Positions 16,411 to 61,138 are shown, counted from the first letter of the stretch. The stretch is DNA of 64,000 nucleotides from Candidatus Dormiibacterota bacterium (GCA_963768105.1 CAVYGR010000004.1:118019-182018); one strand, 5' to 3'. The notes: a model not told the origin generated them from the sequence alone. Numbers and translations: made by a program.

Positions 16411-16776
16411 TCAGCGAGATTAGCGGTTACCCGGCGAGCAGGGCAACCGATCTCCTCGATCTTCCAGGGGTCAGTTTGAATCCGATGGTTTCGTGGCGCG
16501 TTTGCCTCCCATGAGACCGCCAATAGCGCCGAATCCGCCCCAGAACGCCTCTGGGATTTGCTCAGGAGTTCCTCCAGATGGCGGCAGGTAGGCCATGACG
16601 ACGATGAGCACGAGGCAGATTCCGGTAACCGATGAAGTCGAATCCCGCTTCGATCTCGATGGCCAACTGTGTAGCTGAGGGACGGGGAGCTTGACGAAAC
16701 GGAGCTAGCAGGACAGCGCGTAGGTACCCGGAGCGCAGAATCAGATAGCACCCCACTACTCCCCGGTCGAACGGTA

Positions 16777-42655: not shown

Positions 42656-43385
42656 TCAGCGCGAGTAGCGACGGGATCGAAGCCCGAGACGGTGCAACTC
42701 GAAGCGATTCACCGTCCAGACCGTCTTCAAGCCGTACACGAGCGAGACGCGAAAGTTCACCGAAGACGCATCGTCGAAGTACTGCGTCTTGACCGGGACC
42801 TCGGCGACCTTGAAGTTGAAGGCGGCGGCCTGGGTGAGGATCTGCGTGTCGAACACGAAGTCATTCGAGTTGCGCAGGAACGGCACGGTGGTCAGGAACT
42901 TGCGACTGTAGGCGCGGTATCCGGTGTGGTACTCGGAGAGTCCGAGTCCGAGCACCCGATTCTCGAAGCCGGTGAGCGAACGGTTGGCGAGGCGCTTCCA
43001 CCACGGCATGCCCCCTGCCCTGGCGCCACCGGCGCTGAGAAAGCGTGATCCCAGCACCACATCGGCGCGTCCGCTGCTGATCACCTCCACCATGTCGGTG
43101 AGAATCGCGGGGTCGTACTGACCGTCGGGATGCAGCATCACGATGACGTCGGCGCCGTCGCGCAGCGCTTCGATGTAGCAGGTTTTTTGGTTGGCTCCGT
43201 AGCCGGCGTTGTGTGGGTGTCTGATGACCACGAGATCGAGGGACGCAGCCAGGCGGGCGGTGTCATCGGCGCTGCCGTCGTCCACGAGGATGATCGTGTC
43301 CACAACTCCAGCAGGGATCTTCGCGATCGTTGCCTCCAGAAGTCTTGGCCGCGTTGTACGCGGGCATCACGACTACCGTCCGCAA
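42656..43385 (-). CDS. GT2 polyprenol-phosphate glycosyltransferase (Ppm1/GtrB-like), interrupted by a +1 frameshift.
   Basis: The N-terminal VVVMPAYNAA lies in another frame (ORF 43263..43460) and joins LLEATIAKIPAGVVDTIILVDDGSADDT at the TT run 43345-43346. The rest is typical (HPHNAGYGANQ, VVLGSRF). Confidence 0.65.
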
Positions 43386-43552
43386 GGTCTCGATCGAACC
43401 TCGACCGGTGACACCGGAGCGCTTCTGCCGTGCCGTGTCTGGCAACTGCATCCATCCCACTTGGCCGGCACCAGCTCGGCGTTGGCGCGTTTGACCTCTT
43501 TCAGCGACCGATCATACCGCCTGCTCATGGGGGAGCGAACCCGCACAGGCCG

Positions 43553-44570
43553 CTACGGCGTCGCGCCGGTCTCGGCGGGTTTGTAGTTCCGCCGGTAGAA
43601 CTCCCAGAACTCACCGGACTTGAGCGGCCGCCACCAGTCCTCGTGCTCCACAAACCAGTCGACGGTCCGCTGCATACCCGCCTCGAAGGCCACCGCCGGG
43701 TGCCAGCCCAGCCCCATGAGCCGAGTCGAGTCGAGCGCGTATCGTCGATCGTGGCCGGGGCGATCGCGAACGAAATGCTTGAGCGAGCTCGGCTTGTTGA
43801 GCAGGCGCAGCACGGTATCCGCAACCGTGATGCCATCGGTCTCGCCCCCGGCGCCGATGTTGTAGTCCATTCCCACGACACCTTCGCGGAGGGCGCGATC
43901 GATCCCTCGAGCATGGTCCTCGACGTAGAGGTAGTCGCGAACCGCCCCACCGTCCCCGTAGATCGGCAGTGGTCGATTCTCGATCGCATTGGTGATGAAG
44001 AGCGGAATGATCTTCTCCGGGTACTGATAGGGGCCGTACGTGTTCGATCCGCGGGTGACGATCGCGGGGAATCCATACGACATCCGGTATGCCTGCACCT
44101 GAAGTTCGCCGCCGGCCTTGCTCGCGCTGTACGGGCTGCGCGGACGGAGCGGATCGCCCTCGACGCTGACGCCGCTGGTCACCTCCCCATAGACCTCGTC
44201 CGTGCTCACCTGCACAAACCGCTCGTGCCCGTGCTCGCGCGCCGCGTCCATGAGCACGAACGTCCCGTACACGTCGGTCAGAATGAACTGCCCGGGGGCT
44301 TCGAGCGAACGATCGACGTGCGAACTCGGCGGCGAAATTCACGATGACGTCGGTGGCGGCGGCAAGCTCGCGAACGGTCGCGGCATCGCAGATGTCGCCG
44401 CGCACGAATCGGAATCGGGGGTCGGGGCGTACCGGATCGAGATTGCGCTCGTTGCCGGCATAGGTGAGCTTGTCGAGCACGATGACCGAGTCATCGGGAT
44501 GATCGCGGAGGGTCATGCGCACGAATTCGCTGCCGATGAACCCCGCTCCGCCGGTGACCAGCAGGCGCAC
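43553..44570 (-). CDS. rfbB: dTDP-glucose 4,6-dehydratase, interrupted by a +1 frameshift.
   Basis: MRLLVTGGAGFIGSEF...NFAAE | SHVDRSLEAPGQFILTDVYGTFVLMDAA...YSASKA. The frames join at the AA run 44323-44324. Confidence 0.8.
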
Positions 44571-44571
44571 G

Positions 44572-45142
44572 TCAGATGTTCTCGATCGTCCAGTCGAAGC
44601 CGATTCGTGGATCGTTCCAGGCGATCCGGCCCTCGTCCGGGTCCTCGGCGTTGTACGGCTGGGTCACATAGTAGTTGAGGATCACGTCACGCATCGAGAG
44701 GCATTGGTATCCATGCGCGACGAGCGGCGGGATGGCCACCATCCGGGGTGCGTTCTCGCCGAGCATCAACGCCTGGATGTGACCCGCGGTGGGTGAATCA
44801 CTGCGCAGGTCAACGAGCACGACCCGGGCGTCGCCCTGGATGATGTCCCAGTAGTCCCACTGCCGCTTGTGCCAGTGGAACGCCTTGATCAGCTCGGGCG
44901 GGTTGCCCCCTCGAGCGTAGGTGAGGCTGCGCGACATCTGCGCGAAGGCCTGATCGGGGAGGAACGGGCCGGCCCTCGTCATCGAGGTCACCGACCTTCA
45001 GCTGCTCGATGAAGTAGCCGCGCTGGTCGGCCCACTTTTGAAACGTCTTGACCATGACGCCGTCGATCGCGCCGAAACGCTCGGCGAGGGGGCGCGAAGC
45101 CATCATGTTGAGCACCCCTTCCATCTCGGGGAGCACGGTCAT
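44572..45142 (-). CDS. rfbC: dTDP-4-dehydrorhamnose 3,5-epimerase, interrupted by a +1 frameshift.
   Basis: The N-terminal MTVLPEMEGVLNMMASRPLAERFGAIDGVM..GYFIEQL (ORF 44810..45151 frame) joins the C-terminal cupin part in the ORF 44572..44991 frame at the GGG run 44965-44967. Confidence 0.7.
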
Positions 45143-45153
45143 CCATGCCACAG

Positions 45154-48100
45154 CTACTGGAACCAGCCCTCAAGGTCGATGGTCACGTTGACGCTGCCGG
45201 CGCTGTTGTACAGGTAAACCTCACCGGCGTGCGCATCACCCATTCTGTCGAGTTGCACCACGGCCAGGTTGGGGAGGGTCACGCCGGCATTGACGTTCAG
45301 ATCCGATACCGACGGCCTGCTGGTGAGGTTCGCCGGGTAGAGGGTCAGGAATGTGGCGGCGGTGGGTACTACTGCGGTCAGGTTGGCGATCACCGCCACC
45401 ACCGTTGTCGCGCTCCCGGCGTCGGGAATGCCCATCGCTCCGGCGACCGGGGTCAGGCGGCTCAGCGCAGCACCGATCGCCCCGTGCGCGCACGAGGTCG
45501 TGGCCACGCGGGTGTCGCAGATCCGCGTGGGCGCGACCGCCTGGTACTGGTACCCGGGCGCGATCGCGGTCGGGCTCCCATACCAGCCGTTGGCATCGAC
45601 CACGACGTTGATGATCCCCGCAGCGTTGAAGACGCAGAGCGCGTCGGTGACCCCGCCGGGCGACGACGGACCGAGCTTGACCATCACCCGGTTGGCCTGC
45701 ACCCCCCCGGCGGCGAGGCTGAGGTTCGAGGTCCCGGTGGGCTTGCACGCCCCGTTCGGCTGGGGCGGAAAGAGGCTGAGATAGGTTGAGGCGGTTCCCG
45801 CCACGCCGGTGACGTTGACCACCACCGCCCCGGCCGTCCCGTCACCGGGGAGGCCCCCGGTGGCGGCGAAGTTGACCACCATCGATGCCCCAGGCCCGAG
45901 GGCGCCGTGAGCGCTGCAGATCGGCGTCGGCGACCGCGGCCTGGTGTCGCAGACGCGGATCGGCGAGACCGGGTGGAACAGCCCGGTCACGACGCTCGCC
46001 GGCTGCGGGGTGAAATACCCTTCCACATCGGCGACGACGTTGACGGTGCCCAGGGCGTTGTAGATGTCCACCGCGCCCCCTGGGCCGAGCGTCACCGTGA
46101 CCAGGTTGGCGATGACCGTGTGTGCCAGGAAGTTCAAATTCGACGCGTTCGGTCGCGTGGCGGACGGGTAGACGGTCAGCAGGCTCGCCGCGGAGCCGTT
46201 GACCTCGGTCACGTTCAGGACCACGGCGGTCGCACCCGTCGGTACCGGTGTGGGGCCAACTCCGGTGACCTGGAGTGGTCTGACTGCGCCCGGTCCCAGC
46301 GGGCTGCCCGCGCGAGTGTCGAGTATCCGGAACGGGCTGAGGGGTACATAGTTCGCGAGTCCCACGTACGTGTACGCAGATGCGCTGTTCTGGACGCTCG
46401 ATCCCAGGGAGTCGCTCGCCTGCGTCTGCACGACCACTCCCATTGTCGTGGCGTTCTTCGGAGTCACGAACGTGAACGATTCAGGAGTGAGACTGTTGAT
46501 GGGGGTGATCGGTGACCCCGCGAACGTGAAGGCCGTGTCCGGCGCGAAGTCGAAGCCACCGACGGTCACGGTCTGACCCCCCGCAACCGGGCCGGAGCTG
46601 GGCGTCAGTGACGTGATCGACGGTCCCGAGAGCGTGTAGCGACCTATGTACGTGTTCCAGCAGAACTGAGCACTGCTCTGGCAGCTCGTTGTGCTGTCGC
46701 CATTCGTGTCCTCGGAGACGACCCACACATCCGCGGGATGATTCGGATCCACGGCGGCACCGGAGTAGTCGCCCCAGCGGCACACGAACGACGCACAGGC
46801 CGGGGCATAAAATGTGGAGCTCGGCTGCAGCGTCGTGACGTTCGTCAGCACCGAGGCACCGCTGTCGATCGCCGCCACGTTGATGGTCTCGAGCGCCGCT
46901 GTGGAGGACTCGTCGAACACGGTGAACACGTTGCCGGCGGAGTCGATCGAGAGCGCTGGGTAGAACAGGTCGGCTCCGTTGACGCCCACATTGTTGATCT
47001 GGGTTCCGGCCGTGACGTTTCCGCTCGTGTCAGCGCCGACGCTCACGTAGTCGAGACATGAGCGCGCCGCGGTGTCTCCCATCGGCGTACACGTTGTGTT
47101 GCCGGCGGTCCAGAGTGCGTTGTTGTACCAGACCGCGTTGAGAAAGCGGTCGTCATCCGTCTGCAGCTGGAAGGGAGTACCCGGCTGATCGGCCGGCGGC
47201 GTCGAGCACGAACTACCGCTGCACTGCACGACCGTGGGTGTCATGGGCTCGTAGACGGGCGGCAACATCGCCACGTTGCCCCCACGCGGAGTGCCGTGCA
47301 CGGCAAGGACTCCGATGGAGCAGATCGTCGGAGAGCATCCACCCTCTTGAGCATCCGAGTTGTTCCACACGACGTACTGATACGGGTTTGACCCCAGTTC
47401 CTGCGCCGGCTGGAGCCCGAAGGCAAGGTTCTGAAAGTCCACCAGGCTGGAGGTGCCAACGAACGTGAGGGTGCCCTTCAGCAGATCCGATTTCTGGATG
47501 ATCAGCAGCTCGCTCTCTACGTAGCCGCCGGTGCAGTTGTCGTAGATACTCTGCGATGACGCCACGAGGCTGCTGGAGATGCCGAGTCCGGGCTGATCGC
47601 CCAGTAGTCCGTCGCTATTGCTCTGGTAAGGGGCCCACCCAAAACCGTACCAGATGTCATGCGATGTCAACGCCGACGCCGGCGAGACCAGGACGACGTC
47701 GAAATCCGGATAGCCGTTGGCGACGCACACCTCGAATTCCGGCGCATAGATGTCGAGCTCGCTGAGAAAGAACCGCCCGGAGGCGGCGTCATACACGATT
47801 CGCGGATCGGTGACCTGGTAGGACCCCGCGGACGATCCATTGAGAAACGTGTTGAGATCGAAGGAGAACTCAAAGCCGCCGACCCGCGAGTAGACGAACA
47901 CCGTGCTGTTCGTGGTCTCCACCACCTGGTACGGGCCCACTGCGATGTCCGGATCAGGGGGTGCCACCGTTTGGTCACCGCCGTAACGGGTGATCGCCGA
48001 CGACTGGGCGGTCCCCGCGAATCCGATCAGCTTCGACGGCGGCGTGCTGGAAGTCAGTGTCGGCGTCAGCCGCGCAGAGGGTGCCGGTGATGTGGCGCGC

Positions 48101-48396
48101 TGGTCGGCGCGAGAAGGCGATTGCGGAGCGCGCAGGGGCGGATTGATGAGCGATGGGCTCACCGGGAGGGTGAGCATGTGGAGGTGCCCGGGCGGCGCCG
48201 CTACCGAAGCGATCGGGGTGTGCGCGCCTCGATGCGCGGACCCCGCGCCACGGAATGGTAATGCCGAGCGTGCAGGCCCGTGGACGCCCCGCGAGACCGG
48301 GGCGGAGGCCGATGCCGGCACCTGCCCAAACACCGGAAGCGCGATCACGAGTCCTGCGGCGACCAGCACACGACGAGCGCGCCTTGCAGAGAGCAT
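45154..48396 (-). CDS. Large secreted multidomain protein, paralog B (about 1081 aa). Same architecture as 7022..10018.
   Basis: Signal peptide MLSARRARRVLVAAGLVIALPVFG (ATG at 48396). IPT/TIG domain SLTPSSGPVAGGQTVTVGGFDF. Three C-terminal repeats. It ends IDLEGWFQ, and its stop lies 3 nt from the rfbC start. Confidence 0.7.
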   Translation of the reverse strand: MLSARRARRVLVAAGLVIALPVFGQVPASASAPVSRGVHGPARSALPFRGAGSAHRGAHTPIASVAAPPGHLHMLTLPVSPSLINPPLRAPQSPSRADQRATSPAPSARLTPTLTSSTPPSKLIGFAGTAQSSAITRYGGDQTVAPPDPDIAVGPYQVVETTNSTVFVYSRVGGFEFSFDLNTFLNGSSAGSYQVTDPRIVYDAASGRFFLSELDIYAPEFEVCVANGYPDFDVVLVSPASALTSHDIWYGFGWAPYQSNSDGLLGDQPGLGISSSLVASSQSIYDNCTGGYVESELLIIQKSDLLKGTLTFVGTSSLVDFQNLAFGLQPAQELGSNPYQYVVWNNSDAQEGGCSPTICSIGVLAVHGTPRGGNVAMLPPVYEPMTPTVVQCSGSSCSTPPADQPGTPFQLQTDDDRFLNAVWYNNALWTAGNTTCTPMGDTAARSCLDYVSVGADTSGNVTAGTQINNVGVNGADLFYPALSIDSAGNVFTVFDESSTAALETINVAAIDSGASVLTNVTTLQPSSTFYAPACASFVCRWGDYSGAAVDPNHPADVWVVSEDTNGDSTTSCQSSAQFCWNTYIGRYTLSGPSITSLTPSSGPVAGGQTVTVGGFDFAPDTAFTFAGSPITPINSLTPESFTFVTPKNATTMGVVVQTQASDSLGSSVQNSASAYTYVGLANYVPLSPFRILDTRAGSPLGPGAVRPLQVTGVGPTPVPTGATAVVLNVTEVNGSAASLLTVYPSATRPNASNLNFLAHTVIANLVTVTLGPGGAVDIYNALGTVNVVADVEGYFTPQPASVVTGLFHPVSPIRVCDTRPRSPTPICSAHGALGPGASMVVNFAATGGLPGDGTAGAVVVNVTGVAGTASTYLSLFPPQPNGACKPTGTSNLSLAAGGVQANRVMVKLGPSSPGGVTDALCVFNAAGIINVVVDANGWYGSPTAIAPGYQYQAVAPTRICDTRVATTSCAHGAIGAALSRLTPVAGAMGIPDAGSATTVVAVIANLTAVVPTAATFLTLYPANLTSRPSVSDLNVNAGVTLPNLAVVQLDRMGDAHAGEVYLYNSAGSVNVTIDLEGWFQ

Positions 48397-48519
48397 TCCT
48401 GCCTCCGCGGGTGATGGTGCCGGCGTTGGAGCAGCTGCTCGGATGGTGGCCGCCGCCAAGAGCCCGCCGCCGCAGTCTAAGGGGCGTTGTCGAATTTGAG
48501 ACGGATCACGCGATCTTCG

Positions 48520-50401
48520 TTAGCCGAGGCGAAGACTGAGCGGGCTGGGCCAGAGGACGTTCTCGTTCAGGTACGGCTCCGCGATCTCATCGACGCCGCC
48601 CCACGCCTCGGCGAACGTCCGTGCAGCCTCGCCGACCGGTTCGATCCGCCCGGAGCGGGCAGCCCCGCCCCAGGTCAGCTCGGCCAGCGGTGTGCAGAGG
48701 ATGCGATGTTCAAGCGCGCGAACACGCAAGCAGTAGTCGACGTCCCAGAGCACCGTCGGGAATTTCTCGTCGAGCCCACCCGCCGCCTCGAACACCGCGC
48801 GCCTCGTCATCAGGCAGGCACCCGAGACCGCGCTCACCTCCTTGATCACCCGCAGCCCTTGATCCACGCTGGCCGCGATGGCCAGCCGCCCCAGAATCAT
48901 TCCTTCATGCGCAACCGAGCCGTCCGGATATCGCAGCCGCGCTCCCACCGCACCGATGGCTTCGCGCAGGCTCAATTCGAGCATCAATTCGAGCCATTCC
49001 GCGGTGATCACGCGCGTCGACGCGTCGAGGAGAACGATGTGGTCTCCGGTCGTGCTCCTGGTTGCGGCGTTGATCGCCGCCGGCACATTTTCACCGGCCC
49101 TCACGACCATGACGTGCCGATTCGCATAGGTGGAAAGCCGCGCAATGCCTGTCAAACACTCCTGCTCGTCAGCCCGGGACGTCCGAGCGACGACGAGGAC
49201 GTCAATCGACGGCGTCCCGGCAAGCGTGTAGCGAGGGATGTACAGCCCGGGGCTGGGACCGAACTCCACTCGGGCCGCCACGCCACGGCGGCGCAACGCG
49301 TCGTCGACCGCGCGGCGCCCCGCGTCCTGCGCCAGCGGCTTGCGGTCCGCGGCGACAGCCGTCGAACCGGGGGCCATCCGCCAGGCGTAAAGCACGTCGG
49401 GCACGTGGCCGATGTGTCTCGCGCGCTCGCTCACCCGCAGCATGAGGTCGTGGTCCTGGCTGCCGTCGAAGCCCTCACGAAATCCGCCGATCTCCGCCAG
49501 GAGCGAGCGGCGAACAACTGTAAAGTGGTTGATGTAGTTCTCGGCGAGCAGGCGGTCCGGCGAGTACTCGGGCTTGAACGCCGGCGCACCGAGTTCGCCG
49601 TCAGCAAGGAGCTTGTCCTCGTCCGAATAGACGAGGTCGGCATCGGCGTGGTCGCGAAGGTACCCGGCCATCGCAGAGAGCGCGTGCGGACGAAGCACGT
49701 CGTCGTGGTCGAGGAATCCGACGAAGTCACCCGTCGCCAGCTCGATCGCGGAGTTCGACGCGGCCGCAATACCACCCTGCCGGTCACGGAAGGTGACTCG
49801 CACGCGCGAATCATCGTGCGGCGCCTGCGAGCACTGCACGCACCCGCGGGTTTGTCGACGCGTCGTCAGCGATGCACAGCTGCACGTGCGGATACACCTG
49901 CGCCAGCACCGAATGGATGGCGGCGTCCAACCACACCGGGTCCGGGTCGTGCACCGGCATGACGATGCTGATCACCTGAGGGGACACGAGCGCCTCGGCG
50001 GCGCTGCGCATCCGGGCCAGCTCGGTGGATGAGGGCGTGTGCAGCACAAGCCAGCGGCGGTACTGCCTGCGGCGCGCCGTGGGGGTGTCCGCAACGCCGA
50101 TCGCTCTGCGCAGGGCGCGGTTGCGACGCATCACACCGACCAGCGCGGACGGGCCGTGCTCGATGAGCACGAGCGTCCTCGAGGCCACCGTGTGCAGGCT
50201 CTGCTGGCGGCGCGAGTCGGCAGGCACCAAGCGCCGGATCTTGCGCACCGCCGACATCGCGATCCGGGCGGATGCGCTGTCCGTGGACTGGGCGAGGTCG
50301 GTCCGGGCCCGCTGGAGCTCTGTCTCCAACTCTGTGATGCGCTCGCGGGCGGCCCCCAACTCATCGCGGAGCCTGCCCAGCTCAGCGCGGGAGCCTTTCA
50401 T
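48520..50401 (-). CDS. Two-domain GT2 glycosyltransferase with an N-terminal coiled-coil, interrupted by a +1 frameshift.
   Basis: N-terminal heptad-like LGRLRDELGAARERITELETELQRARTDL. First GT2 domain ISIVMPVHDP...CIADDAS. After a shift near 49821 it continues RVRVTF..GGIAAASNSAIELATGDFVGFLDHDD, then a second GT-like domain. Confidence 0.65.
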
Positions 50402-50548
50402 TGACCGAACGGGCGGCAGGTCGCCGAATCCATCCTCAGGTGCATGGACAGCAGATGGTAGGCGCGGCGCGCGCGATCCGCCGCCACTTAGTATGCTCGA
50501 ACTCAGGCGGGCCGCCAGTCAACGACATCCGAATTGGAGATTCCCAGC

Positions 50549-51398
50549 ATGACCGTCGTCGCCCAGGGGAGCAGCCGGCTCCAGGCGATCCCACGGCCGA
50601 GCAGTACCTTCCAGAGAAATCTCAACCTCATCCGCGAGCTTTCGATCACGCAGTTCAAGCTGAAGTACACGGGCTCCGCGCTCGGGTACGTCTGGTCGCT
50701 GGTCAAGCCGTTGATGCTCTTCGGGATCATGTACCTGGTATTCAGCCTCCTGCTGCATACCGGCGGCAACGACGCCGAATTCCCAGTCGAGCTGCTCGTC
50801 GGCATCGTCCTTTGGACGTTCTTCGTCGAGTCCACGACGCTCGCGATGAACGCCATCGCCGGAGCAAGCGATCTCATTCGAAAGGCATACTTCCCGCGCT
50901 GGATTCTGGTGGTTTCGTCGACCGCCAGCGCGTTGCTGACCTTTGCCATCAACACACTCCTGGTGGTGGTGGTCACGTTGCTCACCGGCCAGCTGCATCC
51001 TTCGTGGTGGAGCCTCCTGACGCCGCTGTATTACGTCGAGCTCGTCGCGCTGGTGCTGGGTCTGTCGCTGCTGCTGTCGGCGCTCTTCGTCTTCTTCCGG
51101 GACCTCGGGCATATCTGGGAAATTCTCACCCTCGTGCTCTTCTATGGTTCGGCCGTCGTCTTTCCCTTTTTCCGTATCCCCGCGTCGCTGCGTGGACCTT
51201 GCCGGACTGAATCCCATCGCGCAGATTGTTGAGGACATTCGTCATGCGCTCGTCGATCCCGGCGATCGGTATATCCCGTCGATGGTGACCGCGATCGGAC
51301 CGCTGGTGATCGTTCCGATACTGGTCACGGTGGCGGTCTTGATCATCGGGTTCGTCGTCTTCACCCGGCTCACCCCGAAGTTCGCCGAGGCCCTGTGA
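50549..51398 (+). CDS. wzm: ABC-2 type polysaccharide exporter permease (Wzm/KpsM-like), interrupted by a frameshift.
   Basis: Six TM helices, FKLKYTGSALGYVWS signature region. The C-terminus continues in the ORF 51144..51398 frame (LNPIAQIVEDIRHALV) after an indel near 51190. ggaga lies 8 nt upstream of the ATG at 50549. Confidence 0.7.
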
Positions 51399-52671
51399 AG
51401 CCCGTCGTCGAGGTCTCGCATCTGAGCAAGCGATTCCGGCTGCCGCTCGACAAGAGCACCACCCTGAAGTATCGAGTCACCCACTGGCGCAGCACGTCGC
51501 GCTACCGCGATCTCCACGCGCTGCAGGACGTTTCGTTCGAGATTCCGTCGGGGCAGTTCCTCGGCATCGCCGGACCCAACGGCTGCGGCAAGAGCACGCT
51601 GCTGAAGATCATGTGCCGGATCTACGAGGCGACCCGGGCAGTGCAGTGGTGAACGGCGAGTTCTCCGCATTTCTCGAGCTCGGAGTCGGGTTCAACCCCG
51701 AACTCACCGCGCGGGAGAACATCTTTCTCGGTGGCGCGGTGCTCGGCCTGACTCGCGCGCAACTCCGCGACAAGGTCGACGAGGTGCTCGCATTCGCCGA
51801 ACTCGAGGACTTCGCCGAGCAGAAGCTGAAGAATTTCTCGTCCGGCATGCAGGTTCGGCTCGCCTTCACCGTTGCCATCCTCGCGCGCACCGACCTTCTG
51901 ATCATGGACGAGGTGCTGGCGGTCGGTGACGCAAGCTTCCAGGAGAAGTGCTTCGACACCTTCAACACCTACAAGCGCGAGGGCAAGACCATCGTGCTCG
52001 TGAGCCATGACCTGGTCGCTCTCGAGGAGTACTGCGACCGTGTTCTGCTCTTGAACCACGGCCAGGTCATCGCGGATGGGCCCGCGGCCGAGGTCACGTC
52101 GGCGTACCACCGCATGATCGCCGAGCATTCCATGGCCATCGCGAAGGACCGGTCGGCGGTCTCGGTGTCGCGCGATCCGAATCAGTCCGGAGCGAGAGCC
52201 GTCGAGATCCTGTCGGTGGGCCTGCTCGATGGCAACGGGCAGACCGCGCGAGGGTTCGACACCGGGGATCCGATGACGGTAACCGTCCAGTTGCTCGCAC
52301 ATCGAGACGTCGGTGACGTCGTCTGCGGTGTGGCACTGCGCCGCATGGACGGGCTGCTCGTCGCCGGCACCAACACACTCCTCGACCACGTCCTGGTGCC
52401 GAGCGGTCCGCCGGGCTCCATCGCCACGCTCCGGCTCAGCATTGACTCGTTGCTGCTCCTCGCCGGCGGATACATCGTCCAGGTCTCCGCCCACGATGTG
52501 CCCGACTCGATCATGTACGACTTCAGCGACCCCGCCGCGAGCTTCCATGTCGACGACGCGGTGGGACACGTGGGTGTGCTCGAGATGCATGCCGCATGGC
52601 AGGTGGATCGGGAGGACGGCGCGACCACCGCAGACGCGGTCCCCCAGACCGCCGTGAACGTACCGCGCTGA
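51395..52671 (+). CDS. wzt: ABC exporter ATPase (Wzt/KpsT/TagH-like) with a ~150-aa C-terminal extension resembling the Wzt C-terminal carbohydrate-binding domain, interrupted by a -1 frameshift.
   Basis: Walker A GPNGCGKST, then IYEA|DPGSAVVNGEFSAF rejoined at the G-run near 51631, signature FSSGMQVRL, Walker B LLIMDEVLAVGD and a beta-rich C-terminal extension. A 4-nt overlap with wzm. Confidence 0.75.
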
Positions 52672-52680
52672 TCGGCAGAG

Positions 52681-53517
52681 TCAGATCGGGGCGCCGGTGA
52701 CGAAGAACAGCAGGTGCGCGGGCACCACCCCCATCACCACGCTGATGATGAGGACGTAGAGCATCGCCGTCGCCGGTTGATTGGCTCGGATCCTTGCGAA
52801 GTGCCTGGTGAGCAGGGCGACCCCGGTCGTGAAGACGATCCCCGAACCGATCACGAGCAACCAGAACGGGATGGCGTCCCCGGACCAGAGCAGCTCGCGG
52901 CGAACCGCCGATCCGGCGGTCGCGATCACGAGGACGATCGCCACCGCCTGGATCGCCACCGCCGCGAACACGATGTCGATGGCACGACGAAGTGGACGGA
53001 ACGAGAGATTGGGCGCCACCAGGTACCAGTGGCCTAGCAGCATCCCGGCGAGCGCGCTGCCCGACACCAGCGCGGCGGGCACAAAGGCAACCGCGGCTGT
53101 GGCCACCCCACCCAGCGCCGGGCCGAACGCGGCAGCGCACTTGGCGATCGCCATGGCACCGAACCCGATGGTGATGAGCCCAACCACCCGGCGGGCCACG
53201 TCGGTCATCACCGCGGAGAAGAACGCGTAGGCGAGCAGCGCGACGGTGAAGGCTATCGACCAGTGGAACAGGTCCGCCTGCGCGCCACCCGGCAGCGGCG
53301 CGCCGAGGAGCGCCGCACCCGGCGGCAGCAACCCCTGGACGAGCAGATCAACCCCCATGACGAGCGCGCAGATGAGCGACGTTGTTCCCGCGAATCCGCG
53401 TCCGACCCTGCCGAGGAGGTCAACCGCGTAGGCGGCGACTGTCGTGCCTGCAGCAACCTCGAGCAGCACGACCACCGTCGCGATCGGGGCGAGCGCCGGC
53501 AGCGACAGATCGGCCAC
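52681..53517 (-). CDS. Polytopic integral membrane protein (278 aa, unknown function).
   Basis: About eight hydrophobic helices. It lies in the glycan locus between wzt and the methyltransferase. Confidence 0.5.
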   Translation of the reverse strand: MADLSLPALAPIATVVVLLEVAAGTTVAAYAVDLLGRVGRGFAGTTSLICALVMGVDLLVQGLLPPGAALLGAPLPGGAQADLFHWSIAFTVALLAYAFFSAVMTDVARRVVGLITIGFGAMAIAKCAAAFGPALGGVATAAVAFVPAALVSGSALAGMLLGHWYLVAPNLSFRPLRRAIDIVFAAVAIQAVAIVLVIATAGSAVRRELLWSGDAIPFWLLVIGSGIVFTTGVALLTRHFARIRANQPATAMLYVLIISVVMGVVPAHLLFFVTGAPI

Positions 53518-53565
53518 GGCTCGATCCTACGGTTGTGGTGAGCCCCCACCGGCGGGGCTCGTCCG

Positions 53566-54543
53566 TCACGCGCCCGGGGTGCGCCGGCTGAGTCGTGCGA
53601 GCGCGCGCAGCGCCCTTCGCAGCACGGCGCGGCGCAAGGTTCCCTGGGGGGCAGCTTTGACGGCGAGCTCTTCGGCCCGCTTCGCAACCCGAGCGGTGGG
53701 TCGCTCGCTCCATTCGGCCGTGCGCTCGAGCGTCTGCACGCGTTCCTGGAGCTCGCCGAGGCGGCGCATCTGATCGAGCACGACGGCGTTTCGCTCCTGC
53801 AATTCGAAGCGCATGCGCGAGTAGGCGCGGTCGTAATCGGCGACCACCCGATGCAGTGGGGCCGATGACCTGCGGTAGCGCGCGGCCCACGGCGCGATGT
53901 AGAGGCCGTCGTAGTCCACGTCACGGATGAAGCCGTGACGCGCGAACCGCTCGCTCCAGTACTCCTGGGGGTGGATGTTGGTGTGGGTCGGGTCACGGTA
54001 GTGCACCGGGGTCGACGAGACGATCAGCTCGTCGGTGAAGGCGCAGAGGTTGGCGATGGCGCGGTCGGCGTCCTCCGGAGTCATGTGCTCGAACACCTCG
54101 AAGCAGGTGATGAGGTCGTAGCTCTTTGGGAGAGGCTCGGTGATCGAGCCGACCGTCAGAAAGGGCCGGATGTCCTCACGCGATTTGGCGATCGCGAACT
54201 CGCTGAAATCGATGCCCTCCGCATCGACCCCCCGGTCACGCAGGGCCTCAACGAGCAGCCCGATCGCGCAGCCGGCATCGAGCGCCGTGGCCGGATGGAA
54301 GTCCTCGATCAGCCGATCGGCGATCGTCCCAAAGAAACGGAGCCAGTGCGGGCTGTGCTCATAGGTGATCTCGCCCTCGGCGTAGTTCGCGTAGTAGCCG
54401 GCACCGTAGTCGGAGGAGAGGGCGCTCGTGCCGGCGACGCCGGGTGCCGGTTCGTCCTCTGCGGCTGCCGATCCGGTCTTCACCCGCCCGGATGCTAGCA
54501 CCCGCCTGCACAACCGGATGTTTGCCGGGTGACGGTTTCGCAC
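53566..54543 (-). CDS. Class I SAM-dependent methyltransferase with a C-terminal coiled-coil tail (WbdD-like chain-terminator candidate).
   Basis: SAM motif I LDAGCAIGLL, then DLITCFEVFEHM, then a C-terminal heptad-rich RMRFELQERNAVVLDQMRRLGELQERVQTLERTAEWSER. The start is uncertain because the divergent neighbour overlaps it. Confidence 0.6.
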   Translation of the reverse strand: MRNRHPANIRLCRRVLASGRVKTGSAAAEDEPAPGVAGTSALSSDYGAGYYANYAEGEITYEHSPHWLRFFGTIADRLIEDFHPATALDAGCAIGLLVEALRDRGVDAEGIDFSEFAIAKSREDIRPFLTVGSITEPLPKSYDLITCFEVFEHMTPEDADRAIANLCAFTDELIVSSTPVHYRDPTHTNIHPQEYWSERFARHGFIRDVDYDGLYIAPWAARYRRSSAPLHRVVADYDRAYSRMRFELQERNAVVLDQMRRLGELQERVQTLERTAEWSERPTARVAKRAEELAVKAAPQGTLRRAVLRRALRALARLSRRTPGA

Positions 54544-55296
54544 ACCGGGTTCGAACTCGATTTGGCTCTGCTAGGTTGGGTCGCAGTGTCTGACCAGCGT
54601 TCCCTGCTGCGCGGCCGCCTGGCCACCGCCATCGACGGCGTCGCCGACGTCGCTGCTCGCCTCGAGCCGCCGGCGACTCGCGCCGTCGCGTCAAGCCCGC
54701 CGCACGGGCCTGCCGCCCCGTCCGGGCGCCCGTGGACGGTCGCCGCGGCGATGGAGCCGGTCGCCCAGGCGCCCGTCGATCGGGTCGCAGTGGGAACCTC
54801 GTCGCGGCTGCACTCGCGTCACGTCCGTCCGGCAGGTCCCCCGGGGCACCACCACTTCCCGGCGATCATCGGCGCCGTGATCACGCTGGCGGTGGCGGTG
54901 CTCGCGGTGATCGGGGTCCGCCTGCTGCCCGGCTCCCGACCCGCCCCGGCCCCCCCGACCGCGCAGATCGCCCTCACCGCGGTCCGGCCGGTGGCACCCG
55001 CGGCTCCGGTGAGTGGGCTGGTCCCGCCGACTCAGGTCTCGTTCCCGGCCGGATCCTCGACAGTGTCCATCGACGTGAACTCCAGTGCGGCGACGGGGCA
55101 TGCCCCGGTCGAGATCCGGGTCGGCGTCGGGCAGCCAGAGCAGATGCTGATCGACCACGAGTACGTGCTCGATGCTTCCGGCAACACGCTCATCCCGTTG
55201 ACGCCCGCGAGTGGGACCTACGCGCCCGGCAACTACACGGTCACGATCATCAGCAACGGCGCCACCGTCGGTTCGACCGCCTTCCAGGTCCGCTGA
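54529..55296 (+). CDS. Hypothetical membrane-anchored protein.
   Basis: A single TM segment (FPAIIGAVITLAVAVLAVIGV) followed by a ~120-aa beta-rich C-terminal domain. The N-terminal 100 codons are low-complexity, so the start is probably internal. Confidence 0.35.
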   Translation: MTVSHTGFELDLALLGWVAVSDQRSLLRGRLATAIDGVADVAARLEPPATRAVASSPPHGPAAPSGRPWTVAAAMEPVAQAPVDRVAVGTSSRLHSRHVRPAGPPGHHHFPAIIGAVITLAVAVLAVIGVRLLPGSRPAPAPPTAQIALTAVRPVAPAAPVSGLVPPTQVSFPAGSSTVSIDVNSSAATGHAPVEIRVGVGQPEQMLIDHEYVLDASGNTLIPLTPASGTYAPGNYTVTIISNGATVGSTAFQVR

Positions 55297-55306
55297 CGAC
55301 CTTCGC

Positions 55307-55624
55307 TTAGCGCTCGACGGGTAGCCCGGCGTCCTCCCAGGCTTCGATGCCACCGCTCACGTTGTACGAGTTCTCGCGCCCGATGGTGCGCAGGTACTCC
55401 ACCGCGCGTGCGCTGCGCCCGCCCATATGGCAGTGCACGTAGACGTCGCGGTCGGCTGGGATCTCGCCGACGCGGGTGGCAAGCGTGCGCAGCGGGATCA
55501 GGATCGCGCCGGGGATGTGCACCTCGTTGTACTCGGACTGCTCGCGCACGTCGACGAGCACGGCTTCGCCGGCCTGCAACGCCGCGCTCGCTGCCTGGGG
55601 GCTGACCTCGGCGCTCTCGGACAT
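55307..55624 (-). CDS. Single-domain rhodanese-like sulfurtransferase.
   Basis: VLVDVREQSEYNEVHIPGAILIP and the active-site Cys loop YVHCHMGGRS. ATG at 55624. The upstream 85 codons are artefact. Confidence 0.75.
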   Translation of the reverse strand: MSESAEVSPQAASAALQAGEAVLVDVREQSEYNEVHIPGAILIPLRTLATRVGEIPADRDVYVHCHMGGRSARAVEYLRTIGRENSYNVSGGIEAWEDAGLPVER

Positions 55625-55700
55625 CGGCGGCAGTATAGGTGCGTCACCGGCGCGCGCCGTCCCGCGTGCACGCGCGCACCGGCCTGCTAGGCTCGTGGCC

Positions 55701-56969: not shown

Positions 56970-56971
56970 GG

Positions 56972-58303
56972 GTGCCACCGGCGACCAACCGCTCACCGAC
57001 GCTCGTCGACAGGCTGCGCAAGCTGCCGCTGCCGGTTGGGACGATCCCGGTCGCGATCGGTCTCGGGCTCGCCGGGCTGACGCAGTACGGCTTTCTCATC
57101 GTGGCCGCGCGCGCGCTCGGTCAGGCCCGTTTCGCGCCCCTTTCGGTGTTCTGGGCCCTCCTGTTCGTCGCCGGTCCCGGCTTCTTCATACCCCTCGAGC
57201 AGGAGACGGGGCGCGCCATCGCCGCCCGGCGCGTGCGCGGCGACGGTGGACGTCCGGTCGTCGAGCGAGCGGCCGTGATCGGCACGGTGCTCGCAGTGGT
57301 GCTGATCATCGCGACGCTGGCGCTTGCCGGTCCGATCGACCGGCGGGTGTTCGACGGCGACCCGGCCCTCCTTGCGGCGCTCGTCGGTGGTTTCGCCGCG
57401 TACCTGTGCGAGTTCCTCGCGAGGGGCGCGCTCGCGGGCAACAACCGCTTCGGGTCGTACGGCGTGCTGATCGGCGGCGAAGGTGCGCTTCGGGTCGTCT
57501 TCGCCGCGACCCTGGCGGTCATCGGGGTCAAGGTGGCGGGCCCCTACGGGGTGTCGATGATCGTCGCCTCCTTCCTGGCCATCGCGCTCGCGATCGCGGG
57601 ACGGAGCGGACTGTTCCGGCCCGGTCCCCCGGCGGCATGGTCCGAGGTGACGAACGCGCTCGGCTACCTGCTCATCGCGTCGATCTTCACGCAACTGCTG
57701 CTGAGCGTCGGCGCGGTCGCGGTGCAGCTGCTCGCCACCCCCGCACAGGAGAGCGCCGCCGGCCGTTTTCAACTCAGCCGGATCGTCGCGTACGTCCCGA
57801 TCTTTCTCTTCCAGGCGGTCCAGTCAGCGCTGCTGCCGCGGCTCTCCGCCCTCGCCGCTGCGGGCCGAAAGGTCGAGTTCCGAAGCCTCCTCTTTCGCCT
57901 TCTTGTGCTCGTCGGTTGCCTCGGCGTGGTCGCCGTGGTCGGATTCACGGTCCTCGGCCCGACCCTCACGCGGCTGCTGTTCGGTCACGGCTTCGAACTG
58001 ACCAATCTCGACTTCGCCCTGCTCTCGGCGAGCTGCATCGGCTTCATCGTGACCCAGGTCTTCGGCTACGCGCTGATCTCGCTCTCCGCCTACCGGCGTG
58101 TCGCCTTGGGCTGGGCGACCGGCGGTGTCGTCTTCATCGCCGTGGCGGCGCTCGGGTCGCAGCTGTTCCTTCGCGTTGAACTGGGCCTCCTGTGCGGCGC
58201 GATCGCGTCGTCTGCGTTGATGGCCGCGCTCCTGATGTCCCTTTTGAGAGATCGAGACACGCTCGATACCCAGCCGCGAATTGCGGAGGCCCATACCGCC
58301 TGA
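56972..58303 (+). CDS. Polysaccharide biosynthesis protein / oligosaccharide flippase-like (MOP/PST superfamily, about 12 TM).
   Basis: 443 aa and very hydrophobic, with a repeated-helix topology typical of Wzx/PST proteins. GTG start 2 nt after the gdh stop. Confidence 0.55.
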   Translation: MPPATNRSPTLVDRLRKLPLPVGTIPVAIGLGLAGLTQYGFLIVAARALGQARFAPLSVFWALLFVAGPGFFIPLEQETGRAIAARRVRGDGGRPVVERAAVIGTVLAVVLIIATLALAGPIDRRVFDGDPALLAALVGGFAAYLCEFLARGALAGNNRFGSYGVLIGGEGALRVVFAATLAVIGVKVAGPYGVSMIVASFLAIALAIAGRSGLFRPGPPAAWSEVTNALGYLLIASIFTQLLLSVGAVAVQLLATPAQESAAGRFQLSRIVAYVPIFLFQAVQSALLPRLSALAAAGRKVEFRSLLFRLLVLVGCLGVVAVVGFTVLGPTLTRLLFGHGFELTNLDFALLSASCIGFIVTQVFGYALISLSAYRRVALGWATGGVVFIAVAALGSQLFLRVELGLLCGAIASSALMAALLMSLLRDRDTLDTQPRIAEAHTA

Positions 58304-58313
58304 GACTGGGCCA

Positions 58314-59273
58314 ATGGGAGCTCGTGCCCGGATTGCGCTGGTCGGAGCCGGGGCGATGGGGGCCAACCATGCGCGCGTCATCTCGGAGTTCGATAGCGCC
58401 GATCTCGCGGTGATCATCGACACCGACCGGGAGCGGGTGCGCCCGCTCGCCGAGCGGCTCGGGTGTGGGTTCTCGGAGGATCTCGACGCCGCCGCCGGCT
58501 GCGACGCGGCGGTGATTGCCACCCCGACCGCCTTCCACGCGAGCGCGGCCCGTGCCCTGCTCGAGCTCGGCAAGCCGATCCTCGTGGAGAAGCCGGTCAC
58601 CGCCGATCTCGAGACCAGCCGGGCGCTGGTCCTGTGCGCGGAGCGCCGCGGGGTCCCCCTCATGTGCGGTTTCGTCGAGCGCTACAACCCGGTCGTCGCG
58701 ACCATGCGCAGCCTCCTCGACGAGGAACCGGTGCACATCGTCGGCCTGCGCCACTCGCCGGCGACGCCACGCAGCACCCTCAGCGTGGTCTTCGACCTGC
58801 TGATCCATGAGATCGACCTCGCCGTGGCGTACATGGGAGGCGCTGTGCCCTCGCGGGTGTGCGGGGCCACGAGCACCGCGGGACGCGCCCCGATCATGGA
58901 GGTGGCCGACTGCCTCCTCCACTTCGCTTCCGGAGCGGTCGCGACGCTCTCCGCAAGCCGTGCGAGCCAGCGCAAGGTCCGCTCTCAGTTCGTCGCAACG
59001 TCCACCGCCCTGTACGAGGTCGATCTCCTCCGCCAGGACCTGACCGTCTACCGGCACCGCGCCCACGAACAGGGCGTCGGCGTCGGGCAGGCGGCCGGCT
59101 ACCGGGCGGAGACGGTGGTCGACATCCCGTTTGTGCGCCATACCGGCGAGCCACTCGCCCTGCAGTTTCGCCACTTCCTCGACCTCATCGAGGGACGCGC
59201 CGACGCGTGCCGCGAACGCAACTCGATCCTGCCCGCCCACGAGATCGCCGCGGTGATCGAGGAGTGCTCATGA
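58314..59273 (+). CDS. Gfo/Idh/MocA-family NAD(P)-dependent oxidoreductase (sugar dehydrogenase-like).
   Basis: N-terminal Rossmann motif ARIALVGAGAMGANHARV and a C-terminal alpha/beta domain. Confidence 0.8.
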   Translation: MGARARIALVGAGAMGANHARVISEFDSADLAVIIDTDRERVRPLAERLGCGFSEDLDAAAGCDAAVIATPTAFHASAARALLELGKPILVEKPVTADLETSRALVLCAERRGVPLMCGFVERYNPVVATMRSLLDEEPVHIVGLRHSPATPRSTLSVVFDLLIHEIDLAVAYMGGAVPSRVCGATSTAGRAPIMEVADCLLHFASGAVATLSASRASQRKVRSQFVATSTALYEVDLLRQDLTVYRHRAHEQGVGVGQAAGYRAETVVDIPFVRHTGEPLALQFRHFLDLIEGRADACRERNSILPAHEIAAVIEECS

Positions 59274-60016
59274 GCGAACCGACCTTCAGCTACGTGATCC
59301 CCGTCCACAACCAGGTCGCCGATCTCCGCCGCACCGTGCGCCTGCTGGTAGAACGTCTTGGCCATCTCCCCGGCTCGGAGATCATCCTCGTCGAGAACGG
59401 GTCGTCTGACGGGTCCGGGCCTCTGTGCCTCGCGCTTGCGGCCACCTTCGACGGGGGCGACGTGGCGGTCCGGGTGACGACATCAGCACAGGGCCTGGGA
59501 TTCGCCTGGCGGCGGGGGATGGCGATCGCGGGCGGCGAGACGCTGGTCCTCACGGCGGCCGACCTGCCCTTCGGGTTCACTGATCTCGACGGCTATCTCG
59601 GCATGGACCCGCGGCCGGCGCTCGTCATGGGCTCCAAGTCGCACCCCGAGTCGCAGGTGGAGACGTCGATGGTGCGGCGGGCGCTGTCGGGCGGATTCGG
59701 CCTGCTCCGTTCCGGGCTCGTCGGTGTCAACGTCGACACCCAGGGCACCGTGCTCATCCGGCGCGCGCTCGCCCAGTGGCTGCTGTCGCGCCTGCGAAGC
59801 GGTGATTTCCTGATCGGCGCCGAGATCAACTGCTGGGCGATCCGCGAGGGGATCACCCCCGTCGAGATCCCGGTCGTCTACACCGCCGGCGGCCGCTCGA
59901 CGGTCTCGCCGCTGCGCGACTCCACCCGGATGGCCATGGGCCTCTTCGCCCTGCGCCGGCGACTCGTCGACGACCGGCGTGCGCTTCCGAGCACCGGCGA
60001 GGCGACCGCCTCGTGA
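59270..60016 (+). CDS. GT2-family glycosyltransferase.
   Basis: SYVIPVHNQ...IILVENGSSDGS. The ATGA overlap with the upstream stop suggests translational coupling. Confidence 0.7.
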   Translation: MSEPTFSYVIPVHNQVADLRRTVRLLVERLGHLPGSEIILVENGSSDGSGPLCLALAATFDGGDVAVRVTTSAQGLGFAWRRGMAIAGGETLVLTAADLPFGFTDLDGYLGMDPRPALVMGSKSHPESQVETSMVRRALSGGFGLLRSGLVGVNVDTQGTVLIRRALAQWLLSRLRSGDFLIGAEINCWAIREGITPVEIPVVYTAGGRSTVSPLRDSTRMAMGLFALRRRLVDDRRALPSTGEATAS

Positions 60017-61138
60017 CCTTCGCCCGGGCACCGTCGCTGGATCGCGATCCGCATCTCCGCGCCGCAACTCGGCCGCGAGGTCGAGGCGCTCGTCCTGTCG
60101 GTGCTGCGCAGCGGCCACCTCGCGCAGGGCCCGATGGTGGAGCGGTTCGAGGCGCTCTGCACCGCGATGACCGGCACCGCACACGCGGTCGCGGTCAGCA
60201 ACGGCACCGTCGCTCTCGACGCGGCGCTGCAGGTCCTCGACATCGGCCCGGGTCAGGAGGTGATCACCTCTTCCTTCACCTTCGCGGCGACCATCAACGC
60301 GATCCTGCGCAGCGGCGCATCGGTGCGCTTCGCCGACATCGGTGAGGATTTCACCATCGACGCCGCATCGGTGGCCGCGCTGGTCGGACCCACCACCACG
60401 GCAGTCATGCCCGTGCACCTCTTCGGGCTTCCCGCCGACATGCGGGCGCTGACCTCGCTGGCTGCCTCGCACGGGCTCGCCATCATCGAGGATGCCGCCC
60501 AGGCACACGGAGCGGACGTCGGCGGCCGCCGCGCCGGCAGCTTCGGTGTGGGCTGTTTCTCGTTCTACGCCACCAAGAACGTGACCAGTGGCGAGGGCGG
60601 CTGCGTCACCACCGATGACGCCATGCTCGCCGAGCGGCTGCGCGTGATCCGCAACCAGGGCATGCGCGGCCGCTACGATTACGCCATTATCGGCCAGAAC
60701 TGGCGGATGACCGATGTGGCCGCGGCGATCGCCATCCCGCAGATGGAACACCTCGACGAGATCAACGCCGCCCGGCGCGCCAACGCCGCGACCCTGACCG
60801 CGTTGCTCGCCGGCAACGCGTGGATCGCCACGCCGGTGGTGCCGGCGGGGCGCGGTCACGTGTGGCACCAGTACACGGTGCTGCTCGACGTCGGCATCGA
60901 CCGCGATCGTGTCGTGGCCGTCATGGCAGCGTCCGGCGTCGACGCGGGTGTGTACTACCCCGGTCTGGTGTGGGACCACGACGCGTACCGGCATCATCCG
61001 AACGTACATCGTGACGACACCCCGGTGGCCCGTGACGTCGCGACGCGCTGCCTTTCGCTGCCGGTGCACCCAGGACTCAGCGCAGACGACCTCGAACGCG
61101 TCGCGGCGGCGCTGACCGCCGCGATTCGCGCCGCCTGA
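60013..61138 (+). CDS. DegT/DnrJ/EryC1/StrS-family PLP-dependent sugar aminotransferase, interrupted by a +1 frameshift near the 5' end.
   Basis: GTG at 60013 overlaps the GT2 stop (GTGA). The family N-terminus IRISAPQLGREVEALVLSVLRSGHLAQGPMVERFE lies in the next frame with no canonical start of its own, and the frames rejoin at the CC run 60049-60050. PLP-Lys region FSFYATKNVTSGEGG. Confidence 0.75.

Follow-up and report, generated by a model that had tools for sequence, protein, structure and literature searches.

A 64,000-nucleotide stretch of one DNA strand from a Candidatus Dormiibacterota bacterium (GCA_963768105.1, CAVYGR010000004.1:118019-182018; the window, below) contains, at positions 42656-61138, an 18.5 kb locus with genes on both strands that, by its gene content, is an ATP-binding cassette (ABC)-transporter-dependent glycan assembly pathway: the exporter proteins Wzm and Wzt and a polymerizing glycosyltransferase (GT) are encoded together. 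The C-terminus of Wzt is a true Wzt_C domain, and a gene close by encodes an S-adenosylmethionine (SAM) methyltransferase (MT, below) from a family that is recurrently fused to GTs. We consider it probable that this is a capped-glycan locus, in which a probably rhamnose-containing chain would be methyl-capped by MT and its export through Wzm would be gated by recognition of the cap by Wzt_C. An earlier note on the window had proposed such a locus, and all of the components that it listed are present, with highly significant domain matches. The phylum name is spelled as above at NCBI; we write Dormibacterota.

The exporter and the genes of the locus

The wzm and wzt genes overlap by 4 nucleotides (nt) and are divergent from the polymerase gene, from which they are separated by a 148-nt gap. 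In Wzt, the Walker A motif GPNGCGKST can be read directly, and the nucleotide-binding domain (NBD) is recognized as one of the Wzt/TagH type only after repair of a frame break at ~51631. The C-terminal extension matches the Pfam family Wzt_C (PF14524) over profile positions 3-140 of 143, with a score of 82.3 bits against a cutoff of 30.4, in agreement with the earlier note. The PDB matches of the repaired Wzt are Aquifex Wzt, TarH, and TagH (E=1e-63 to 1e-45), and its residues 37-386 align, through the carbohydrate-binding domain (CBD), to full-length Aquifex aeolicus Wzt (8DKU/7K2T, E=1e-63). Mycobacterial RfbE gives a weaker match (E=2.7e-39) and has no C-domain, so the proposed likeness to the GlfT1-RfbD-RfbE unit is a generic one.

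The CBD of A. aeolicus Wzt binds a 3-O-methyl-mannose/rhamnose cap, with a pocket that includes Leu300, Thr346, Ala348, and Trp362 (PMC9445017). At the position of the methyl-stacking Trp362 the window has Phe, and 30 of 37 MT-linked Wzt proteins have His or an aromatic residue there. Among Dormibacterota, the NBD is 82-93% identical to that of one relative of the window, L004, whereas identity in the C-domain is 47-77%, and the divergence of this domain behind a conserved NBD fits a module that determines specificity. Our search for literature on Wzt in Chloroflexota or Dormibacterota, which did not take in the survey by Mann, Kimber and Whitfield (2019; Glycobiology 29:822), found nothing specific. 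In an alignment of Wzt proteins encoded near distant MT homologues (alignment A2), one Wzt-containing open reading frame (ORF) also matches methyltransferase domains; it is either a fusion or a read-through created by an assembly error.

Genes in the window (G+C 64-72%) were selected by third-position GC bias and then by Pfam. Those of the locus are listed here with their strand and length in amino acids (aa) where relevant.

42656-43451, minus strand: PpgS/Ppm1-like GT2, probable polyprenyl-phosphate sugar synthase (Pfam Glycos_transf_2, E=1.2e-15; NCBIfam PpgS, E=8e-24, under the cutoff)
43553-44570, minus strand: rfbB, dTDP-glucose 4,6-dehydratase (halves of the Pfam match in two frames)
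44572-45142, minus strand: rfbC, dTDP-4-dehydrorhamnose 3,5-epimerase (Pfam dTDP_sugar_isom, E=1e-19)
45154-48396, minus strand: secreted TIG/IPT-domain protein ("paralog B" of the earlier note), 1,080 aa (Pfam TIG, E=2.3e-10)
48520-50401, minus strand: probable glycan polymerase with an N-terminal heptad coiled coil and two GT2 domains (Pfam GT2, twice)
50549-51398, plus strand: wzm, ABC-2 permease (Pfam ABC2_membrane, E=1.4e-9)
51395-52671, plus strand: wzt, NBD and C-terminal Wzt_C domain, the latter at ~52180-52570 (Pfam ABC_tran; Wzt_C, E=4.5e-23)
52681-53517, minus strand: polytopic membrane protein with ~8 transmembrane helices, Dormibacterota-specific
53566-54501, minus strand: class I SAM methyltransferase (MT), candidate chain terminator (Pfam Methyltransf_23/25/11/12), with a heptad helix at ~53719-53856 and a basic amphipathic C-terminal helix at ~53587-53637
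54592-55296, plus strand: membrane-anchored protein with a small extracytoplasmic domain (no Pfam match; 35-81% identical among relatives)
between the preceding and the following gene: rhodanese and glutamate dehydrogenase (gdh)
56972-58303, plus strand: MOP-superfamily (MurJ/Wzx-like) membrane protein (Pfam MurJ, E=0.0014, under the cutoff)
58314-59273, plus strand: Gfo/Idh/MocA oxidoreductase, probable sugar dehydrogenase of an aminosugar branch (Pfam GFO_IDH_MocA, E=1.6e-23; 87% identical to L004)
59270-60016, plus strand: GT2, 248 aa (Pfam Glycos_transf_2, E=1.1e-10; tblastn over residues 1-248, 76% identity)
60013-61138, plus strand: DegT/DnrJ/EryC1 sugar aminotransferase (Pfam, E=1.3e-110)

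The last three genes overlap stop to start by 4 nt at 59270-59273 and 60013-60016, as had been described for an aminosugar unit. The genes upstream of 42656 (thiolase, PfkB kinase, DUF6909, ABC-F, and EamA) are housekeeping genes, which makes the left boundary of the locus a reasonable one. No NCBIfam family scored over its cutoff for MT, the polytopic protein, a 239-aa protein, or the MOP-like protein, or for the PMT_2 and GT87 proteins of relatives. When the ORFs of MT and DegT were looked up by exact sequence, no match was returned, owing to start-codon choice and frame breaks.

A single-base frame switch, one per gene, splits at least seven genes of the locus: the PpgS-like GT2 gene (~43340), rfbB (~44324), rfbC (~44968), the polymerase gene (~49814), wzm (~51165-51196), wzt (~51631), and the DegT gene (~60045). 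We mapped the switches by tblastn with the intact proteins of L004, and found exactly one each in rfbB, rfbC, the polymerase gene, wzm, wzt, and a PepM16 gene that is broken at 61770, beyond the locus. Identity is 86% on either side of the break in rfbB, and 82% and 89% in the two frames of rfbC. The polymerase is covered over residues 1-191 and 197-624 of a 625-aa L004 protein (its N-terminal ORF ends with positions 1-45 of the GT2 profile), and Wzm is covered over residues 1-207 and 205-283 in two frames. In a three-frame reading, wzt changes frame directly after the Walker A motif, from "...GPNGCGKSTLLKIMCRIYEATR" to "GSAVVNGE..." in another frame. The DegT alignment starts at residue 10, and an indel at 60045 relative to L001, the closest relative of the window, locates the break; the N-terminus of the PpgS-like GT2 lies in another frame, and its homologue in L021 is intact.

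Seven single-base breaks within 18.5 kb could mean that the frameshifts are real and that the locus is decaying, with wzm, wzt, the polymerase gene, rfbB, rfbC, and the DegT gene as pseudogenes. The comparison with L001 makes this very improbable. L001 is an ENA metagenome contig that is collinear with positions 43606-64000 of the window at 95.3% nucleotide identity, and ~70 scattered single-base indels separate the two sequences; L001 is intact at each of the break sites of the window (it encodes a 425-aa Wzt, for example) and is broken instead in the GDH, MT, and AdoHcyase genes, where the window is intact. Breaks also recur about every 2.5 kb along the window in otherwise well-conserved genes, including housekeeping genes, and a hybrid histidine kinase gene (27971-29702) is another of those that are split beyond the locus. 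Such a pattern is typical for metagenome assemblies from long reads that have been left unpolished. Identity to distant intact homologues is 57-90% on both flanks of every break, the third-position GC bias continues across the breaks, and the closest relatives are long-read metagenome assemblies. We rejected the pseudogene reading on the strength of the intact sites in L001 and the conserved identity across the breaks, which, judged by these comparisons, are indel errors of long-read assembly. On that footing the system is presumed functional and should be read as intact, and, as breaks occur all along the window, gene calls there need frame repair.

The methyltransferase and its polymerase partners

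The earlier note had described MT as WbdD-like. In a phmmer search of the PDB, the WbdD chains matched MT with E=0.43-0.58, and ChlM and UbiG were better matches (E ~1e-5); in NCBIfam, ChlM scored 39 bits (cutoff 159) and UbiG 32 bits (cutoff 103). An AlphaFold2 (AF2) model of MT (pLDDT 80.5) has one Rossmann-type domain followed by helices, including a helix at residues 195-240. WbdD was not among the top 50 Foldseek PDB matches of this model, which were generic class I methyltransferases, and we found no kinase domain in either the Pfam matches (methyltransferase domains only) or the model (the single Rossmann-type domain). We therefore rejected homology to WbdD on both sequence and fold. 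In the arrangement of its parts, MT is nonetheless reminiscent of a small WbdD.

The heptad helix of MT is 46 residues long, and its a/d positions are 85% hydrophobic, compared with 24% at the other positions. The first ~20 residues of the helix are conserved and may pack on the catalytic domain, so that perhaps 25-30 residues (~4-6 heptads) of coil would be free of it. Two short helices follow, the last of which (LRRAVLRRALRALARLS) has a charge of +6 and a hydrophobic moment of 0.51; the median charge of the last 30 residues across the MT family is likewise +6. This suggests that the last helix is a candidate amphipathic tail for membrane binding or recruitment to the polymerase. The polymerase has a coil of its own at its N-terminus, where the a/d heptad positions are 100% hydrophobic over residues 5-38.

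Coupling of MT to the exporter and the polymerase extends well beyond the window. A wzt gene lies within 10 kb of the MT gene in 63 of 85 MT loci, and in Anaerolineae, other Chloroflexota, and Cyanobacteria it often ends 4-65 nt before the MT gene on the same strand. A Wzt_C domain is present in 28 of the 31 Wzt proteins that adjoin distant MT homologues. Across the 85 loci, MT and the dual GT2 are fused in 11 and adjacent in 15. In three of the relatives (L036, 5158-7848; L037, 3165-5858; L054, 5880-8585) a single ORF of 896-901 aa spans MT and the same dual GT2, as confirmed by Pfam, with the methyltransferase at residues 58-183 and the GT2 domains at ~380-540 and ~635-850. Fusions of this kind are present in further Dormibacterota (Ca. 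Aeolococcus gillhamiae among them) and in other phyla.

A profile search of 1.84 billion representatives gave 1,030 members of the MT family at E<=1e-30. Of the best 150, some 40% are proteins of 650-1,450 aa that have the methyltransferase as their N-terminal part, and each of the 46 long members that we scanned is a fusion of MT to a glycosyltransferase: 36 contain GT2, ~20 contain GT1/GT4, and six contain WsaF_C, a rhamnosyltransferase domain known from Geobacillus. Between MT and the first GT2 domain lies a linker of 123-523 aa that is rich in helix-forming residues. In the window, separate genes encode MT (53566-54501) and the polymerase (48520-50401), and a single segment of the linker in the fused proteins is matched by both the tail of MT and the N-terminus of the polymerase; each half of the split pair would therefore have kept a copy of that module. 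Judged from these alignments, the window is a split relative of the fused architecture and not a member of it.

The matches to ChlM and UbiG in both the PDB and NCBIfam speak for a quinone, tetrapyrrole, or lipid methyltransferase that lies near the transporter by chance, an outcome that the earlier note had recognized as fatal to its proposal. The scores are far under the family cutoffs, however, and the synteny of MT with wzt, polymerase, and rfb genes holds across phyla. Above all, the fusion of every long family member examined to GT2, GT1, or WsaF-type glycosyltransferases effectively refutes this explanation, which we regard as extremely improbable. The context thus supports well the conclusion that MT is tied to glycan polymerization and export rather than to quinone or lipid metabolism, and the proposal that MT is a chain terminator likewise draws good support from it.

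Proposed mechanism and rival explanations

In the mechanism that we propose, the dual-GT2 polymerase would extend a polyprenol-linked, probably rhamnose-containing chain at the cytoplasmic side of the membrane, and the coil and basic tail of MT would keep it close to both the polymerase and the membrane. O-methylation of the nonreducing terminal sugar by MT would stop elongation, and recognition of the capped end by Wzt_C would license export via Wzm/Wzt; the short coils might serve as a ruler of chain length. More speculatively, the PpgS-like GT2, the Gfo/Idh-GT2-DegT unit, and the MOP-type protein could add side residues after export, a step that would use lipid-linked sugars and GT-C enzymes, which relatives carry in the locus. 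Rhamnose is a probable constituent of the glycan, as rfbB and rfbC accompany the MT-GT pair in several lineages. The second GT2 domain of the polymerase weakly resembles the TIGR01556 rhamnosyltransferase.

Several observations weigh against this mechanism. MT has only a generic class I fold, its best characterized matches fall below their family cutoffs, and methylation of the terminal sugar is proposed from the context of the gene. The short free coil of MT makes the role of a ruler a weak one for the split form. For nine of the 11 fused loci, the nearest 10 kb contain neither wzm nor wzt. In the scan of ORFs across the window we did not see rmlA or rmlD, so that only rfbB and rfbC represent the rhamnose pathway in the locus (rmlA and rmlD may lie elsewhere in the genome), and WecA/MraY-, WbaP-, LCP-, and WaaL-type domains were not found; such initiators and ligases are often encoded elsewhere, and their absence does not exclude the pathway. 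Three of the four methyl-pocket residues of Aquifex Wzt differ in the window (L300A, T346Q, and A348S), and the trap loop is shorter. The identity of the cap is thus not transferable from Aquifex; known CBDs vary between serotypes. Finally, some relatives carry a second methyltransferase that could be the true capping enzyme where it is present. In L004, a CmcI-type rhamnosyl O-methyltransferase gene (15570-16412) lies directly upstream of wzm, wzt and the polytopic gene flank a PMT_2 GT-C gene (11884-13383), and a GT87 gene (8748-9959) adjoins the MT gene.

This second enzyme and the altered pocket speak for a different division of labor, in which MT would decorate internal residues or add a second methyl group that does not gate export, and Wzt_C would read some other feature of the chain (a different cap, the backbone, or a cap that a second enzyme makes). 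The methyl groups would on this view add to the diversity of the glycan but neither end its synthesis nor license its export, and there is a precedent for uncoupling in Klebsiella pneumoniae O1, in which the terminal modification is dispensable for export (PMC11231755). We nevertheless consider this explanation distinctly unlikely. The CmcI-type, PMT_2, and GT87 genes were not found in the window by tblastn with the L004 proteins, and MT is the sole methyltransferase of the locus; Wzt_C is nearly constant in the Wzt proteins that adjoin distant MT homologues (the 28 of 31 mentioned above); and the order of N-terminal methyltransferase, helical linker, and polymerase, which the fused family members have, is the architecture of known terminators (PMC11231755; WsaE, PMC2943079). 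We also considered whether the presence of the CmcI-type gene tracks the divergence of Wzt_C among relatives, and dropped the idea, as there was no clear split in identity and the comparison is confounded by phylogeny.

A separate question is the destination of the glycan, which might be transferred onto the secreted TIG protein, as in an S-layer-like or other surface glycoprotein, rather than into a wall polysaccharide; the export logic would be the same. In L038 and in 25 Dormibacterota loci of the window type, the TIG gene immediately follows the polymerase gene on its downstream side. Its product has a signal-peptide-like N-terminus, an N-terminal region rich in Pro, Ser, Thr, and Ala (55%), and three C-terminal repeats. 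The PMT_2 GT-C enzyme in the loci of relatives and the position of the Geobacillus slg cluster next to sgsE (PMC2943079) point in the same direction. Against this, PMT_2, GT87, and WaaL/WsaB-type transferases are absent from the window, L004 and L005 have no TIG gene within their flanks, and a TIG paralogue (~1,000 aa, 65.8% nucleotide-identical over 2 kb) is encoded at 7022-10018 on the minus strand, away from glycan genes and beside a CHAP-domain protein. A PDB search with the TIG protein gave only IPT/TIG-domain and chance-level sialidase matches, with no sign of glycosylation or a lattice. On balance, we regard the TIG protein as a possible but rather unlikely acceptor. A more elaborate version, which we think doubtful and put forward tentatively, is that the window records a natural fission of a terminator-ruler-polymerase, that the halves reassemble via the coil and a "PxGxxRR" helix into a heteromeric ruler, and that the product is a capped rhamnan on the TIG protein; such a glycoprotein coat, of the S-layer type, would be the first proposal of an envelope structure for Dormibacterota.

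In divergent relatives, the rhodanese, gdh, polytopic, and MOP-like genes form a conserved block at a distance of ~2-8 kb from the fused gene. We treat rhodanese and gdh, which the earlier note had counted as components, as neighbors from a housekeeping block and rejected them as parts of the system, and we treat the polytopic and MOP-like proteins as doubtful members. The polytopic gene is 48 nt downstream of the MT gene and stays with the GDH block in L053 and L085; the homologues of its product (84-93% identical) are all unnamed Dormibacterota proteins, it has no Pfam or NCBIfam match, and its AF2 model has a pLDDT of 44.5. A dedicated role in glycan synthesis is improbable for this gene. 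In L036, L053, and L085, which lack the aminosugar genes, the MOP-like gene is still part of the block, and its product is either a side-branch flippase or a housekeeping protein. With its exchangeable cassettes, the locus looks like a hotspot of glycan diversification.

Elsewhere in the window, a TylF-type (macrocin) O-methyltransferase gene lies at 1314-2108 on the plus strand (Pfam, E=1.6e-107); the profile match begins at position 49, and the N-terminus may have been lost to another frame break. A GT2 gene at 31784-32773 on the minus strand (E=2e-26), the start of which overlaps the stop of a 444-aa ORF without a Pfam match (32770-34104, minus strand), may form with that ORF a second small glycan module. 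An MDMPI_N/DinB-like protein is encoded at 2271-2858 and a PIG-L family deacetylase at 35271-36137, both on the plus strand; these families are associated with low-molecular-weight thiol metabolism.

Host, significance, and comparison with known systems

The earlier note had assumed an actinobacterial background, which proves to be wrong. In a scan of one genome per GTDB species, which gave 469 loci, the 28 closest (67-81% amino acid identity) are nearly all from Candidatus Dormibacterota, many of them in metagenome-assembled genomes from long-read sequencing of soil, and the named MT homologues carry the label Candidatus Dormibacteraeota. The locus is syntenic among Dormibacterota genomes, and more distant members of the MT family occur in Thermoleophilia/Solirubrobacterales.

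Cold, nutrient-poor soils are rich in Candidatus Dormibacterota, none of which has been cultured. To our knowledge, nothing is known experimentally about their cell surface. Genome analyses of these uncultured bacteria infer a monoderm envelope (bioRxiv 10.1101/2021.08.23.457424; PMC10608941). The locus, which is kept at one chromosomal position across the phylum with swappable accessory cassettes, predicts a long, end-capped, probably rhamnose-rich surface glycan whose export would be quality controlled as it is for Gram-negative O-antigens and the S-layer glycans of Geobacillus. The analysis also delimits an unnamed MT family (~1,000 representatives at E<=1e-30) that recurs as the N-terminal module of glycan polymerases in several groups (among them Chloroflexota, Dormibacterota, Thermoleophilia, and Cyanobacteria) and that could act as a genomic marker of capped-glycan pathways.

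The earlier note had regarded the combination of a cap-recognizing exporter and a methyltransferase terminator as undescribed outside Gram-negative O-antigens. In Geobacillus stearothermophilus, however, a 2-O-methyl-capped poly-L-rhamnan S-layer glycan is made via wzm-wzt-wsaE, and WsaE consists of a methyltransferase and two rhamnosyltransferase domains (PMC2943079). The pairing of a cap-recognizing Wzt with a coiled-coil terminator is described as widespread across bacteria in a passage of PMC11231755 that cites Mann, Kimber and Whitfield (2019). The concept is thus already established, and the gain is one of breadth, a new phylum, and not of principle.

The nearest analogues of the window proteins are WsaE of Geobacillus, ORF6 of K. 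pneumoniae O7, and WbdD of the O8 type. The systems of Escherichia coli O8 and K. pneumoniae O5 (WbdD, WbdA, Wzm, and a Wzt with a carbohydrate-binding module) resemble the window in being ABC-transporter dependent, with a separate multi-GT polymerase and a Wzt CBD, and in having a standalone terminator, for which MT is the candidate here, that runs from an N-terminal methyltransferase through a coiled coil to a basic amphipathic helix at the C-terminus. MT is related to WbdD only at the level of the class I fold, and it has no kinase domain. O9a/O3 are the methylphosphate variant, and WbdD of the O8/O5 type also lacks kinase activity. The missing kinase domain therefore excludes only a WbdD of the O9a type. 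The coil of MT, a 46-residue helix, is far shorter than the extended ruler of WbdD (PMC11231755); the polymerase of the window has GT2 domains and its own N-terminal coil; and, unlike the O8/O5 hosts, the host is inferred to be a monoderm without lipopolysaccharide, with a sugar that is probably rhamnose and not mannose.

Among solved structures, the best match to the repaired Wzt is WzmWzt of A. aeolicus (7K2T, 8DKU), over both NBD and CBD; Phe replaces Trp362, and the two proteins differ at the other three pocket positions and in the trap loop, as described above. Mycobacterial RfbD/RfbE (Rv3781/Rv3783) with GlfT1 likewise place a Wzm/Wzt-type ABC exporter next to a GT2, but RfbE (260-263 aa) lacks the C-terminal domain that the window Wzt has, and the mycobacterial system has no methyltransferase terminator.

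The cluster of G. stearothermophilus NRS 2004/3a shares with the window a monoderm host (as inferred for Dormibacterota), rml genes together with wzm/wzt, and a gene for a large secreted protein in or beside the cluster. By domain architecture alone, the coupling of MT to a dual-GT polymerase resembles WsaE, with the same order in the fusions of L036, L037, and L054, and WsaF_C is present in the six fused family members noted above. MT and the polymerase are nevertheless separate in the window, 3-6 kb apart and flanking wzm-wzt, and neither a WsaB-type oligosaccharyltransferase nor a WsaP initiator was found there. The fused relatives also share with K. pneumoniae O7 ORF6 and O12 WbbB the order terminator, helical linker, GT2-GT2, and the length of their linker varies (123-523 aa) as that of a ruler would. 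The window form is split and its coils are short, and it differs from O7, which is capped with methylphosphate by a methyltransferase-kinase pair, and from O12, which uses Kdo. In its organization, the window corresponds to a split form of the O7 ORF6/WsaE architecture that is arranged like WbdD/WbdA of the O8 type.

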